NCBI GenBank assembly: GCA_030614005.1
Contig: JAUWKS010000040.1
Coordinates: forward strand, 1-29,877
Direction of reading: 5' to 3'
Origin: Candidatus Heimdallarchaeota archaeon
GTDB taxonomy: Archaea > Asgardarchaeota > Heimdallarchaeia > JABLTI01
Length of the DNA stretch: 29,877 nt
Shown here piece by piece: positions 2,398-6,120 of this stretch. The notes beneath the pieces were generated by a model that saw only the letters and a program-made list of their open reading frames with translations, was not told where the DNA came from and searched no databases. The position numbers were made by a program, and so were the translations under genes. Each line of letters starts with the position of its first letter. Position 1 is the stretch's first letter.

Positions 2398-2775
2398 GTG
2401 AACTCCTTGGCAATAGAGTACAATGGTTATTTGTTACACGGAAATGATGGAGATACAATAGACGAGATAATTAATAATGGATTATTGAAAGCAAGAAAAT
2501 ATGTTTGGATTTCAGGTGCAAAAGTTAACGATTTCATTGTTGTTAATGAACACACAAAAGAAGGGGAACAATTATCCAAGAAGATCTATCGTATGGCACA
2601 AAGATGAGTGAAATTTAAATTCATATTGACGCCTCATGAAAAAACCAAAACTTACAAAAATGCTAAAACTTTTTATCAGAAACTCAAGGGAGTGGAGAAC
2701 ATTGAATTCGAATTCTGTTACGATATGCATATGAAAGTAATCATTGTAAATTACTCGAATATTATAGTAAACTGA
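2398..2775 (+). pseudogene. PLD-family paralog A, copy 1: 5' half only, with an internal nonsense codon
   Basis: 101 of 118 codons encode the same residue as in 5701-6054. GGA>TGA at 2605-2607; the frame continues VKFKFILTPHEK...HMKVIIVN and then becomes unrelated. No GSAN half. Confidence 0.9.
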
Positions 2776-2790
2776 ATAGATTTGATAAAA
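2740..2790 (+). repeat. 51-bp motif, copy 1, at the PLD-A1 breakpoint
   Basis: ATCATTGTAAATTA-N11-TAGTAAACTGAATAGATTT-G-ATAAAA. Matches 11238-11288 at 13/14 in the left block and 19/19 in the right block. Confidence 0.8.
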
Positions 2791-2818
2791 AATAGAAAAA
2801 AAAGAAGCAATTGAAGTG

Positions 2819-5299
2819 CTATTTCTTCTTTGCTTCAGATACTTCTTCTGGAATAATTCCTTCTATGGGCAAGGCTTGCAAACAAGCAGGGCATTTTCCT
2901 TGAGTTTTCACCCATTCTTGAAGATGATTCAAATGTCCTTTCGCTTCACAAAGGGAACAGCTACCTAAAGCTTCACCAAAGGAAATAGGTAGTTTGCATA
3001 CAGAGCAAACAAGTAATTCTTTCTTGCAATCAGAACACTCTGTAACATTACTTTCTATTGGATAGCCACAATAATGACATGTACTATGCTTCACTTGATC
3101 CAAGCTTTTCACTATCGAATTTAGCTTTTCACCTTTAAGATCTTTAGGAATGATAACTTCATTGCCTTCTATATAGAACACTTTTTCACCTGATAAATTG
3201 ATAATCCATTTCTGCAGATCAAGTGTATTCTTGAACTCTAGTAATTGAGCCATTAAAACCAAAGAAATCTTACTATAACTATTAAGAATTCTCTTTAGCT
3301 TTTCTTCAAGTGATGCATTTGTAGAAACTTTCTTGGATGCTTGTAATGCACGCTTTTTTTTGGTACTTAATTCTTTCTTGCCTTTCTCCTCTTCTAGTGG
3401 TTTATAGTCATCTTCTATTATTGTTTCCTTCTTTTTCTTCGAAATCACACTAGAAATGATAATAATAGCAATTATTCCTATTGTTAAACCACCACCAATT
3501 ACCCACCATAACCACACAGGCATTACTCCAGGAGAACCATTTATGGGATAATCATGAGCATCATTTGGACTAGTATTTGCAGCTAATTCTACATCATCAT
3601 TATAAGTATCTCCATCCGAATCTGCTAAGAGTGGATTAGTATGAACATACCCTGTTGCGTTTGCACCTGGGTTCGATGGATGATACATTCCGAGAATTTC
3701 TTCTCCATCAAGTAGATTATCCGAATCTGTATCGCTATTTAATGGATCTGTTAATATGGTATATACTTCTAATCCATCAGGTAATCCATCTCCATCTGTG
3801 TCTAGTTTAGTAGGATCAGTGAAGTAGGTGAATACTTCTATTCCATCAATGAGATTATCTGCATCTGTGTCTGCATTAGTCAAATTAGTTCCATAAAATA
3901 CTTCCCAACCATCTGGTAATCCATCTCCATCTGTATCCGGAAGGTTTGGATTCCCATTAAAGAACTCTTCAGTCATATCATCAATGAAATCACCATCAGA
4001 GTCAATCTGACCAGTATGGAAAGGACTGCCACGACAGCAATACCATTGTTGTGGACCCGATTGACTAATCCCAGTAAAAGTGAGACAGTTAATCTCGTGA
4101 TAGGTAATAGATTCTTCTACATAGCATCTACAAACAATTAGATCAGCTATGTCATCACCATTCACAAAACCAGATGCCATGTAAAGAACACTTCCTCCAA
4201 GATCTTGAGAAAATTGCTCATGACCAGAGGAATTAAAACAGTATAAATAATTATCAGCATATTGTACAAGAATTTCTAAATCCTGACCACCATCAATGTT
4301 GGCAACAAGAAGGTCTCCATTCATGGAAAATCCTTTGTTTAAACTCCAGAGACCAGAACCGCCAAAACCATCAAAGCAATTAAGCGAACCGTCGTCTGAA
4401 CCACAAATGATTTCTATATGACCATCGTTATCAAGATCAGTAATTATTGGGTCAGAGCTAACAGTACCACCTGTTCCCATCACCCATTCTCTTTCTCCCA
4501 AGTGATTGATAACATGTAACTTTTGATCTGTAGAACCAACTAGCACCTCTTTAGTACCATCCTCATCAATATCACCTATTGCAAGATTAGTGCTAATTCC
4601 CTCGATATATGTGTACTCCCATTCTTTAGCACCTTCATGATCCAAACAGATGGTTTTGTTATCGGAAGTACCATAAAGAATCTCAAAAGTACCATCGGAA
4701 TCTAAATCAGCTAATGCAGTAACTGTGAAAATAGTACCAGAATTAGTGTATTCCCATGTTTTGGTGCCATTACAATTAAAACATTGAACTTCACTATCGG
4801 ATTTTACAATAATTTCAAGATAGCCATCTTGATCCAAATCTGCAATCGAAGGAGAATCTAGCATATTATAACCGATACCTCTTTCCCATAATATTGTACC
4901 AGAATAATTGAAACAATGAAGAGCATATCTAGAAGTAATTAAAATTTCTAGCTTGCCATCTTTGTCAATATCAACTATTGTGGGAGAACACCTACCAGAA
5001 GTGGCAAATTCATATTGCCAGAGAGTGTTCCCTAAATTATCTAAACAATAAAAATAACCATCTTGTGAAGTTACCAATACTTCAGGTGTTCCATCTAAAT
5101 CTAGATCAACAACAACAGGATAATAACCCCCAAAATCCGTTAAGGTGAAATTCCAAAGAAACTCAATAGTAGTAGAATCTATAGTTAAATTACTATCTTG
5201 AATATTCGTTTCTGCAGAATTGTCAACTGTGAAAATTTCTGATGAAATAAATAGTAAAAAAAGGAAGGAAATGCCAATAAATTTTTTGTAGTTCAACAT
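2819..5299 (-). CDS. Cell-surface receptor-like protein: signal peptide, FG-GAP/PQQ-type beta-propeller, Ca-binding DxDxDG repeats, TM helix, cytoplasmic zinc ribbon plus RING-like domain
   Basis: Repeated DLDxDGxxEI motifs; DTDGDGLxDG repeats; TM LWWVIGGGLTIGIIAIIIIS followed by KKKK; C-terminal CHYC..CSDC..CSVC..CSLC-x4-H-x2-H..W..CPAC. Confidence 0.85.
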   Translation of the reverse strand: MLNYKKFIGISFLFLLFISSEIFTVDNSAETNIQDSNLTIDSTTIEFLWNFTLTDFGGYYPVVVDLDLDGTPEVLVTSQDGYFYCLDNLGNTLWQYEFATSGRCSPTIVDIDKDGKLEILITSRYALHCFNYSGTILWERGIGYNMLDSPSIADLDQDGYLEIIVKSDSEVQCFNCNGTKTWEYTNSGTIFTVTALADLDSDGTFEILYGTSDNKTICLDHEGAKEWEYTYIEGISTNLAIGDIDEDGTKEVLVGSTDQKLHVINHLGEREWVMGTGGTVSSDPIITDLDNDGHIEIICGSDDGSLNCFDGFGGSGLWSLNKGFSMNGDLLVANIDGGQDLEILVQYADNYLYCFNSSGHEQFSQDLGGSVLYMASGFVNGDDIADLIVCRCYVEESITYHEINCLTFTGISQSGPQQWYCCRGSPFHTGQIDSDGDFIDDMTEEFFNGNPNLPDTDGDGLPDGWEVFYGTNLTNADTDADNLIDGIEVFTYFTDPTKLDTDGDGLPDGLEVYTILTDPLNSDTDSDNLLDGEEILGMYHPSNPGANATGYVHTNPLLADSDGDTYNDDVELAANTSPNDAHDYPINGSPGVMPVWLWWVIGGGLTIGIIAIIIISSVISKKKKETIIEDDYKPLEEEKGKKELSTKKKRALQASKKVSTNASLEEKLKRILNSYSKISLVLMAQLLEFKNTLDLQKWIINLSGEKVFYIEGNEVIIPKDLKGEKLNSIVKSLDQVKHSTCHYCGYPIESNVTECSDCKKELLVCSVCKLPISFGEALGSCSLCEAKGHLNHLQEWVKTQGKCPACLQALPIEGIIPEEVSEAKKK

Positions 5300-5700
5300 C
5301 TAGTTAAAGTCTCCAATAAGATGACTAATTATTCTATATAAATTAATTTCGATAGTAATTTTTTGTTTGAACACAGAAAAAAAGAAAAAAGTTGAATCGA
5401 AAGTCTTGATACTAACTTATCGGTATTGCTTTAAAACCTGAAGAGTTAGACGGAAGAAATCAGTTATTATATGATATTTCTTCCAACTATTATATTATTT
5501 AATCTGTAGTTTTCTATCTAAAAATGATAATATGCAAAGTGTAATGATTAATGAACGGCACCAATTTTCCTTCATTGATTTATATTTCCTTGTTCTTTAG
5601 GAACTAAACCCAAACATTTTGATTTGTGGACAGGTAAAAAAAGGTTAATATCAAACTAATTGATGAACCTATAGCTAATACAAGATTTGTTTATTACAAG

Positions 5701-6120
5701 GTGAATAGATTGGCAATAGAATACAATGGTTATTTGTTACACGGAAATGATGGAGATACAATTGATGAAATTATAAACAATGGGTTACTGAAAGCACGAA
5801 AATACATCTGGATCTCTAGTGCTAAAGCAAATGACTTCATAGTTGTTAATGAGCGTACAAAGGAGGGTGAGTTACTCAGTAAGAAAATATTTAGACTAGC
5901 TCAACGAGGAGTAAACTTTAAATTCATTTTAGCTCCTCATGAAAAGACAAAAACCTACAAAAATGCTAAAACGTTCTACCAGAAATTACGAGATATAGAT
6001 AATATTGAATTCGAATTTTGTTATGATATGCATATGAAAATAATTATAGTAGATTCACTGACTATCCCATACTTTAAGACGTTTTGTGAATACAATTCAG
6101 CATTAGAGGAGAGTAATTAA
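5701..6120 (+). pseudogene. PLD-family paralog A, copy 2: open frame but truncated right after the HKD motif
   Basis: HMKIIIVD is followed by 21 unrelated residues. That tail contains the GAGGAG SD of the next gene, and the stop TAA abuts the ATG at 6121. No GSAN motif. Confidence 0.75.

Follow-up and report, generated by a model that had tools for sequence, protein, structure and literature searches.

In the 29,877-nt stretch of Heimdall-group archaeal DNA analysed here (the window), two diverged copies of the 5' half of a PLD gene lie on either side of an unrelated gene, and both lose their homology to PLD genes at the same codon, within the catalytic HKD motif. This raises the question of why the two copies end at one point. 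The copies, A1 and A2 (Table 1), share 85.6% protein identity over 118 codons (tblastn) and 77.7-78.5% nucleotide identity, with a dN of 0.088 and saturated synonymous sites, which agrees with the original prediction of about 86% protein identity and many synonymous changes. Purifying selection acted on both while they diverged within working genes, so the proposal that both evolved as functional genes was also borne out. Their likeness opens at AGGTGAA (2396-2402 and 5699-5705), upstream of which similarity is poor, and PLD homology is lost at codon 118, the HKD Asp position, in both (AAT 2749-2751 in A1, GAT 6052-6054 in A2). Both ends of the homology are therefore as predicted, but the start codon is not: the GTG at 2398 or 5701 sits within a Shine-Dalgarno-like AGGTGA, the probable start is TTG at 2407 (A1) or 5710 (A2), and database homologues are annotated from the TTG equivalent to 2407. 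A1 and A2 do form direct repeats, 3303 nt apart, around an antisense gene, but this gene (2819-5299) encodes an FG-GAP/beta-propeller protein with TSP3 repeats and not the receptor it had been taken for.

A1 is interrupted by an in-frame TGA at 2605-2607, where A2 has GGA. An independent Logan contig over 2311-3014 showed 0 differences from the window, the TGA region included, and A1 is therefore a pseudogene here. An alternative genetic code is an unlikely explanation of the TGA, as A2 and all relatives have GGA (Gly) at this position and the other genes read normally in table 11. Neither copy carries the complete motif HxK(x)4D(x)6GSxN. Both keep H-x-K and end before GSxN, and at the HKD Asp A2 keeps D and A1 has N. 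The PLDc_2 score of A2 (Pfam) is 21.3 bits, under the cut-off of 27. Judged by sequence, A1 and A2 are fragments of PLD family members, not complete members. The closest relative of A1 is a full-length PLD-A gene in the sister genome G009 (83.9-85% nucleotide identity). That of A2 is the full-length PLD-A gene of L049 (90%), and here identity collapses directly past GAT 6052-6054.

Table 1. Coordinates of the PLD locus in the window.
Feature	Position	Strand	Basis
Decayed copy of the X right half, upstream of A1	1840-1898	+	24-nt motif at 1867-1890, 0 mismatches to search pattern
Shine-Dalgarno-like AGGTGA and likely TTG start of A1 (2407)	2396-2409	+	Read from sequence
A1, 5'-half module of A-type PLD gene, codons 1-118, inactivated by TGA 2605-2607	2398-2751	+	Sequence comparison
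H core of A1, ATCATTGTAAAT, codons I-I-V-N, junction point	2740-2751	+	Full-length homology ends here; all X copies begin here
X linker: H core, 7-codon tail (YSNIIVN), TGA, A-rich run (oligo-T for the antisense cargo)	2740-2806	+	
Cargo, 826-aa FG-GAP/beta-propeller protein with TSP3 repeats	2819-5299	-	Pfam
A2, intact 5'-half module of second A-type allele, likely start TTG 5710	5701-6054	+	90% nucleotide identity to L049 gene
H core of A2, ATTATAGTAGAT, codons I-I-V-D	6043-6054	+	Sequence comparison
A2 tail, 21 codons, diverged X-family linker; TAA directly abuts ATG of next PLD	6055-6120	+	
Intact 179-aa single-HKD PLD, DrmC-like, own H core 6436-6447	6121-6660	+	Pfam, PADLOC
Other PLD-tail copies	6590-6660, 8726-8796, 9611-9681, 10431-10501		
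Orphan X linker, decayed FCYDMHMK-codon remnant in front; then antisense 158-aa gene and PLD-tail copy	11238-11299	+	
Fifth and last PLD-tail copy, right end of island	12104-12145	+	Tail comparison

The recurrent junction is a 12-nt core (ATCATTGTAGAT-like), whose consensus ATYATWGTARAT encodes I-I-V-D/N. The sequences that follow it in A1 and A2 are diverged homologues of one linker of about 60 nt (X), and the first ~15 nt past the break are homologous among A1, A2 and tails from other genomes. The X linker at 2740-2806 is 83-88% identical to window 11238-11299, L032 10343 and 17312, L034 11523, and L017 16000-15944. Within this genome the 24-nt X motif is confined to this locus. The A2 tail is homologous to the tail of L034's short form of 133 aa; that tail, too, runs into the ATG of the following gene (TAATG), and the two differ by a 10-nt indel. 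FG-GAP genes related to the cargo are also found in the PLD arrays of L032, L034 and G010. Logan contigs, which are fragmentary, confirm the A1-X-cargo junction, and strain variants among them break at the right end of X; cover over 5984-6340 is sparse. An Rfam search over 1-13000 returned no family. A search with the tail HMM gave no match at the upstream palindrome U or in the A2 upstream region, and a decayed PLD tail is no longer considered for either. The strings ATTGTARA or ATCAAA were seen at core, tail, X and U sites and are too short and AT-rich to carry weight. Elsewhere in the window, a stranded 5' fragment of an ABC ATPase ends just before Walker A, a conserved motif.

A maximum-likelihood tree of 22 5' halves placed A2 with the full-length L049 gene (support 100/100) and the L034 short form with the full-length genes of G010 and G001 (96/94), while A1 adjoined the full-length G009 gene. 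Under AU tests, a sister pairing of A1 and A2 was rejected at p = 8.7e-6, a single clade of all short forms at p = 1.6e-7, and a grouping of the two A2-type forms at p = 6e-4. Monophyly of the X-type short forms was not rejected (p = 0.29). Local tandem duplication of one already truncated fragment, followed by divergence in place, would give direct repeats with the same end points, as observed for A1 and A2 at a spacing of 3.3 kb. This origin is ruled out by the tree and the AU tests, and we consider it extremely improbable: the A1-A2 clade is rejected, A2 is 90% identical to one full-length gene and A1 84% to another compared to 78% between themselves, and a dN/dS of about 0.1 is not given by neutral decay. 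A single tandem duplication had been called unlikely given the divergence, and the AU test (p = 8.7e-6) bears this out.

Five 5' halves and three 3' halves have their junction at the core, as do five orphan linkers (four X and one A2-type). The broken 5' halves (A1, A2, P0004/L032, P0007/L034, and P0008) come from at least four genomes, and the 3' halves, found in three genomes of two genera, begin at the core behind a common short left arm. The orphan 3' half of G004 is 97% identical to the 3' half of the intact L034_B3, in a match that opens inside the core and closes at the stop codon. Strains L032 and L034 are nearly identical; in them, a block of 98.5% identity stops at the core and is followed by X in one strain and by an A2-type tail and PLD in the other, and a 92.6%-identical block starts at the core in both. 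Between the same strains identity is 100% up to an upstream 19-nt palindrome and then about 79% through the 5' half. At the G004 3' half and at both block boundaries between L032 and L034, recognisable homology of the partners at the joint is limited to the core and ~15 nt. The junction thus recurs with different partners, and some of the exchanges are recent. Because the same position recurs in several genomes, the break common to A1 and A2 is not due to chance. The comparison sample is small, with about eight genomes, all of them metagenome assemblies and mutually related.

The original prediction took the shared breakpoint to suggest a fixed recombination site inside the catalytic motif. 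A fixed, recurrent junction in the HKD segment was confirmed, but it does not by itself prove a dedicated site. Scattered breakpoints in other genomes were to count against this prediction; next to the five 5' halves broken at the core, three 5' fragments break at aa 18, 43, and ~49. The suggestion that the break mirrors the 3'-end array held, as the HKD-segment junction parallels the array of 3' tails. Full-length PLD-A alleles do exist in the relatives, with approximately 10-11 A-type full-length genes and 5 short ones. An empty-site allele without 2752-6054 was not found in the genomes searched. The nearest to it were L034 (short A, then directly PLD) and L032 (short A, X, cargo, PLD), each of which matches one module of the window. 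In L036 an amidohydrolase homologue lies close to a full-length PLD-A gene, but in opposite orientation, and this locus was rejected as a simple empty site. Literature searches yielded no description of such a system.

The PLD gene that follows A2 (6121-6660) is intact. It scored 50.6 bits against PLDc_2 (2e-13, cut-off 27; Pfam) and 2e-10 against DrmC (PADLOC), and it carries the full HMKIVLVD...GSAN motif of single-HKD Nuc/DrmC-like proteins. A PDB sequence search gave one marginal PLD match only. Informative sites in this gene are B-like by 66:19 before column 300 and G009_A-like by 52:10 after it (max chi2 57.5), with the switch in parentage around columns 297-331. By this pattern of sites the gene is a chimera of a B-type 5' half and an A-type-like 3' half, switching near the core.

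We propose, with a probability of roughly 0.5, that in this Heimdall-group archaeon a recurrent joining point at the catalytic Asp codon, and directed breakage and rejoining there, explains both 5' halves. A1 and A2 would be different alleles of a discrete 5'-half module with the promoter and ribosome-binding site at one end and the HKD Asp codon at the other, and PLD genes in this Heimdall genus would be built from exchangeable pieces that meet at the 12-nt core. To the left of the core lies a 5' half, a decayed 5'-half remnant, or a short foreign arm; to the right lies either the 3' half of a PLD gene or an X-family linker, after which come cargo genes or a further PLD gene. The window reads A1-X-antisense FG-GAP gene and then A2-linker-PLD, both 5' halves being joined to X-family linkers. 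The most likely mechanism would be breakage and rejoining aimed at the core by an enzyme acting in trans, and the same process would account for the displaced tails of PLD genes in the cassette array further downstream. As the only constant gene, the PLD nuclease is the obvious candidate for this enzyme. A more far-reaching version, which we regard as improbable, casts the PLD nuclease as recombinase or homing nuclease in an integron-like system, recognising short sites in its own gene, the HKD core and the tail. Cleavage would proceed by way of the covalent phospho-histidine intermediate that PLD enzymes typically form, and the nuclease would rejoin the DNA, assemble its own gene from interchangeable halves, and capture cargo.

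We infer a site-directed process, as opposed to exchange driven by homology, from the independent origins of the halves, the five 5' halves with the same break, the reciprocal 3' halves, the recent events, the sharp left edge of the module, the parentage switch in the window PLD, and at least three junctions whose partners share only the core and ~15 nt. The site-directed reading is weakened by the small sample, by the three breaks elsewhere, by the X-type monophyly that was not rejected, and by the result that no recombinase, transposase, or integrase domains were found in the 30-kb contig (Pfam, 20 ORFs) or near the L032 and L034 arrays. The core is also short and has no clear palindrome, and the orphan X linkers keep decayed PLD codons in front, so that a single old junction may be their source. 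The X-type monophyly, the decayed PLD codons, and the negative search for a recombinase lend weight to an account with no dedicated site, in which one or a few ancient illegitimate joins (5' half to X, foreign arm to 3' half) were followed by homologous recombination and gene conversion. Diverged PLD copies would swap halves within arrays and with incoming DNA, and breakpoints would look fixed where tracts end at homology limits or in the best-conserved DNA block. Such exchange is a serious rival, since the junction adjoins one of the two longest stretches of identity that PLD paralogues have in common: in comparisons of gene pairs, the longest exact match lies mostly in the FCYDMHMK block just 5' of the core (28/136 pairs) or in the tail block (29/136), and these two bins match the two junction classes observed. 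Synonymous-site conservation near the core is not raised, with no extra DNA-level constraint visible, and the ABC ATPase fragment likewise ends just before a conserved motif. Homology alone has difficulty with several junctions at which the partners have only ~8-25 nt of homology, with left-arm fragments that carry type-specific 3'-half sequence from the first base past the core, and with the long YFGSANLTGAG block downstream, which offers better homology and yet shows no switch. The drop from 100% to 79% at the 19-nt palindrome between two strains would be hard to obtain by homology search alone. On balance we find this account plausible but doubt that it is the right one.

The short A form may alternatively have been kept as a working protein, a truncated and catalytically incomplete PLD subunit whose role is to pair with the full-length dimeric PLD encoded next to it or to regulate that enzyme, in which case A1 would be a dead redundant copy. 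This possibility is compatible with either recombination model, and we hold it tentatively. A protein role is possible given the intact short forms in other genomes (125, 125, and 133 aa), a dN/dS near 0.1, and the stop/start coupling to the next PLD, which occurs in two genomes (TAA|ATG in the window, TAATG in L034) and persists despite the 10-nt tail indel. The dN/dS values of 0.06-0.19 apply to short-vs-short and short-vs-full pairs, and full-vs-full pairs give the same; they could also be a legacy of time spent as complete genes, or arise if full-length donors have repeatedly converted the short copies. The terminal branch of A2 carries 11 synonymous and 2 non-synonymous changes, variation in the X-tail codons is mostly synonymous or conservative with TGA fixed, and Asn replaces the HKD Asp in 3/3 attached X-type forms. 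The A2-type tail is, however, poorly conserved in sequence and length, A2 falls under the Pfam threshold, and A1 is already broken. The short form lacks the GSxN half of the motif and about one third of the fold, and, to judge by the Nuc structure, it would be unlikely to fold alone. A predicted heterodimer of the PLD and the A2 5' half scored 0.30 against a mark of 0.32, a value that weighs neither for nor against pairing. For the suggestion that A2 is a natively short partner or inhibitor, the criterion set with it gave a mixed outcome: intact 125-133-aa forms with conserved tails exist, but A-type proteins are not always short.

The proposed half-gene reshuffling resembles several known systems without coinciding with any of them. 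Integron cassette arrays (IntI, attI, attC) have reportedly been found in archaeal MAGs, and like an integron the PLD locus is a row of small accessory genes or blocks (toxin-antitoxin pairs and others) split by one-directional repeats of ~60 nt, whose same-orientation units mark synteny breaks between relatives. Unlike in integrons, neither IntI nor any other tyrosine recombinase is present in the contig, and none is listed beside the L032 and L034 arrays. Single-stranded DNA folding of six X and two tail units gave no significant fold (z-scores -0.8 to +1.5 vs. shuffles) and no attC-like structure. The units are also pieces of a protein-coding gene, with one junction mid-gene at a catalytic codon, and the PLD gene itself is taken apart and reassembled. 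In SSV-type (fusellovirus) integration, attP lies inside the integrase gene, which is split into N- and C-terminal parts. The PLD locus has in common with it that the gene of a DNA-cutting enzyme is divided at a set internal position, its parts sharing a short core and being separated by foreign DNA, but the split gene encodes a PLD-family nuclease and not a tyrosine recombinase, and the window has no tRNA target, virus genes, or matched halves around one insert. Rhs/CdiA loci contain displaced "orphan" toxin ends. There too, displaced gene ends pile up beside an intact gene and keep a short conserved block permitting recombination, whereas the PLD locus displaces 5' halves as well as 3' ends, PLD is a small nuclease without a delivery domain, and the cargo consists of unrelated genes rather than immunity genes. 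Gene-interrupting elements such as skin in sigK, the nifD element, and phage regulatory switches are removed by site-specific excision. These elements also interrupt a coding sequence at one defined position, but the insert studied here has no recombinase gene, A1 has no intact downstream half, and the gene after A2 has its own 5' half. The T4 seg and mob genes undergo intronless homing by free-standing endonucleases and show the same mosaic genes, sharp exchange boundaries near a conserved motif site, and a nuclease gene as the constant member. This is an analogy only.

The HKD-core junction is the second junction on this contig, beside the PLD-tail cassette array. A practical warning for annotation is that the short "PLD-like" ORFs in these genomes, 125-139 aa long, arise by reshuffling. 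The 12-nt core, the X linker, and the tail provide concrete substrates for biochemistry. Even if the exchanges are driven by homology, the locus clearly exemplifies in nature how conserved motif-coding DNA can act as portable homology arms by which gene halves and cargo are shuffled from strain to strain. Were an enzyme to direct the junction, Asgard archaea would possess a gene-capture and assembly system that has none of the known components of integrons, transposons, or integrative elements and whose sites lie within the sequence for a nuclease's catalytic motif. Should the PLD nuclease prove to be the recombinase, the archaeal lineage closest to eukaryotes would harbour site-specific recombination machinery of a new class.

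The two 5′ halves of the A-type PLD nuclease gene, A1 and A2, aligned without gaps at 85.6% protein and approximately 78% DNA identity (dN 0.088; synonymous sites saturated). Their likeness began at AGGTGAA, with none retained upstream, and alignment to full-length relatives showed that both cease to follow the PLD at codon 118, which corresponds to the HxK(x)4D Asp. These data bear out the original prediction of approximately 86% identical proteins, homologous from AGGTGAA to codon 118. The sequences after the break were related to each other. Because the GTG sits inside the Shine-Dalgarno-like AGGTGA, the TTG nine bases downstream is the likely start codon of both. 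In A1, codon 2605-2607 was TGA in place of the Gly codon found in all others, and a Logan contig of a public run was identical to window positions 2311-3014, including this TGA.

The 3.6-Mb metagenome-assembled genome carried all of its PLD-related sequence in a 10.5-kb island of the 29.9-kb contig (C25, the entire window), between an amidohydrolase gene (end 1765) and three alcohol dehydrogenase paralogues. The island contained, in order, A1, an antisense FG-GAP gene, A2, an intact 179-aa PLD, and four cargo blocks with copies of the PLD 3′-end repeat (the tail) between them. The amidohydrolase gene was split in two and may be broken. Large FG-GAP/beta-propeller membrane proteins were repeated cargo in or beside PLD arrays in four genomes. 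Coordinates are collected in the table.

Coordinates of features in the window and related contigs (L032 and L034, near-identical strains; L017, genome G009; L013, genome G010)
Feature	Contig	Position	Strand	Remark
Amidohydrolase ORFs	window	167-592; 749-1765	-	N- and C-terminal Pfam parts
A1	window	2398-2751		
A2	window	5701-6054		
Intact PLD	window	6121-6660		
Zinc-dependent alcohol dehydrogenases	window	12340-15289	-	three in tandem; 69-77% nt identity between copies
FG-GAP/beta-propeller cargo	window	2819-5299		
FG-GAP/beta-propeller cargo	L032	13593-16412		
FG-GAP/beta-propeller cargo	L034	14775-17573; 1209-2897		
FG-GAP/beta-propeller cargo	L013	12476-15157		
Palindrome	L032	9942-9960		and others
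Palindrome	L034	9933-9951		
Palindrome	L017	11396-11414		
X at A1	window	from 2740		
Orphan X	window	11238		
Orphan X	L032	17312		
Orphan X	L034	11523		
Orphan X	G009			
X-cargo join	window	2792; 7576		contigs of public runs X2 and X4
Further strain-variant breaks	window	2774-2809; 11302		public contigs
PLD/membrane-protein ORF	L013	16299-16733	-	
Promoter-region copy	L017	16210-16280	-	
ABC ATPase, intact	window	16548-17366		
ABC ATPase fragment	window	18741-18931	-	decayed, frameshifted

A search of relatives recovered full-length A-type PLD genes (184-188 aa) in sister genomes and metagenomes, so A1 and A2 are 5′ parts of such genes. A maximum likelihood (ML) tree was built from 22 PLD 5′ halves, and constraints were compared by AU tests. 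A2 and the full-length L049 gene formed a pair (support 100/100; 90% nucleotide identity), A1 stood next to the full-length G009 gene (84%), and the L034 short form grouped with those of G010 and G001 (96/94). Identity between A2 and L049 was approximately 90% from the start codon through the codon-118 GAT, and the sequence directly 3′ was unalignable. Sisterhood of A1 and A2 was rejected (p = 8.7e-6), as was monophyly of all four short forms (p = 1.6e-7) and of the two A2-type forms (p = 6e-4); monophyly of the X-type forms was not (p = 0.29). Together with the tree placements, the first test rules out local duplication as the source of the pair, and a single tandem duplication had been considered unlikely from the outset.

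Intact short forms, in which a PLD 5′ half runs into a linker tail, were found as three database proteins. Two are 125 aa long and end in NYSN(T/N)LV(N/D), resembling A1; the tail of the third (133 aa) resembles that of A2. In both L032 and L034 the PLD array opens with the short form. It is followed in L032 by an A1-type linker, an antisense MFS gene and a PLD, whereas in L034 it immediately adjoins a 179-aa PLD, as A2 does, its stop overlapping the next start. Since these layouts match the A1 and A2 modules respectively, the window holds both in tandem.

The A1-type linker, X, comprises approximately 60 nt: the 12-nt core ATCATTGTAAAT, seven codons, TGA and an A-rich run. It is joined to 5′ halves in the window and L032 (copies 83-88% identical), it matches the tail of short-form database protein P0008 at the protein level, and its first 15 nt or so are shared by the A2-type tail. 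All copies start at the same core; changes in the tail codons are mainly synonymous or conservative, and the TGA is fixed. Orphan copies are preceded by decayed remains of the FCYDMHMK codons and thus appear to be old short A-type genes minus their 5′ parts. A genome-wide motif search found no X outside the island locus, and folding analysis found no fold. A depth-112 contig from a marine-sediment metagenome runs from the X end through 37 other letters into a homologue of the 597-aa cargo gene; in other populations, therefore, X also adjoins other cargo.

In all comparisons, short and full-length alike, dN/dS of the 5′ halves was 0.06-0.19. The terminal branches appear constrained as well: that to A2 carries 11 synonymous and 2 non-synonymous changes, and that to A1 has 20 and 6 besides the nonsense codon. 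The ratios agree with the claim that both copies evolved as functional genes. They fit short forms that function as proteins. In favor of some protein role are the stop/start coupling, which is conserved, and an X tail that evolves like coding sequence; against it, the A2-type tail is weak and variable in length and one third of the PLD fold is missing. Low ratios also fit divergence accrued mostly while the 5′ halves belonged to full-length genes, or repeated overwriting of short forms by full-length donors.

The core is the end point of five 5′ halves and the starting point of three 3′ halves (G010, G004 and G044, the last from a different genus), all three behind a common short left arm. 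From within the core to the stop codon, the G004 fragment matches the 3′ half of an intact L034 gene at 97% identity, and the G010 fragment is of a different PLD type despite the same arm. Between L032 and L034 a block of 92.6% identity starts at a core and one of 98.5% stops at a core, followed by X in L032 and by the A2-type tail and PLD in L034. Their flanks show 100% identity as far as a 19-nt palindrome, located approximately 50 nt before the ribosome-binding site, and approximately 79% from there through the 5′ half. This palindrome, a perfect 7+5+7 (ACATCAA AATAG TTGATGT), recurs at this distance in front of PLD genes of both the A type and the G044 type in more than one genus, and is a candidate for an operator or for a third junction site. 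The intact window PLD is itself chimeric, its 5′ half being B-type and its 3′ half A-type-like (informative sites 66:19 for B-type before column 300 and 52:10 for A-type G009 after; maximum chi2 57.5). Deleting 6055-6447 would join A2 to this 3′ half. A fixed junction in the catalytic motif, in line with the original prediction, is supported by recurrence of the core with different partners, but three more 5′ fragments have their break at other positions: aa 18, aa 43 and, in a fragment fused to another ORF, aa ~49. A possible gene fusion occurs in G010, where residues 1 to ~49 of an A-type PLD join a membrane-protein ORF in frame. In G009 the promoter region of the full-length PLD-A, together with its first four codons, occurs a second time in almost exact form between a 5′ fragment and an orphan X, and is joined there to unrelated sequence.

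We slightly favor a site-directed process for the junctions at the core (probability approximately 0.5), because the junctions, several of which are recent, bring together very different partners and all fall within approximately 12 nt, both where just 8-25 nt of homology is common to the partners and where much better homology is close at hand. No recombinase, transposase or integrase domain was found in the contig or beside the L032 and L034 arrays, and no Rfam family matched. Homology-driven exchange is a weaker but real contender: the core abuts the FCYDMHMK block, which together with the tail block holds the longest identical runs between PLD paralogues, and the two classes of junction seen here correspond to these blocks. 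Conservation of synonymous positions there is not unusual, and a stranded, frameshifted ABC ATPase 5′ fragment in the window also stops just before Walker A. That fragment matches aa 1-40 at 47% and, in another frame, aa 28-64 at 70%; an M23 peptidase gene separates it from the intact gene, an arrangement as in the PLD case.

The locus behaves similarly to an integron array but fails the IntI and attC-structure tests. It is reminiscent of intronless homing and of the self-partitioning integrase gene of fuselloviruses, although there the integrase gene is split and here the PLD, and it resembles the orphan toxin ends of Rhs and CDI loci. Literature searches found no description of PLD genes built of exchangeable halves. 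We class the system as a variant of cassette-array and gene-mosaic systems that extends the PLD-tail array on the contig.
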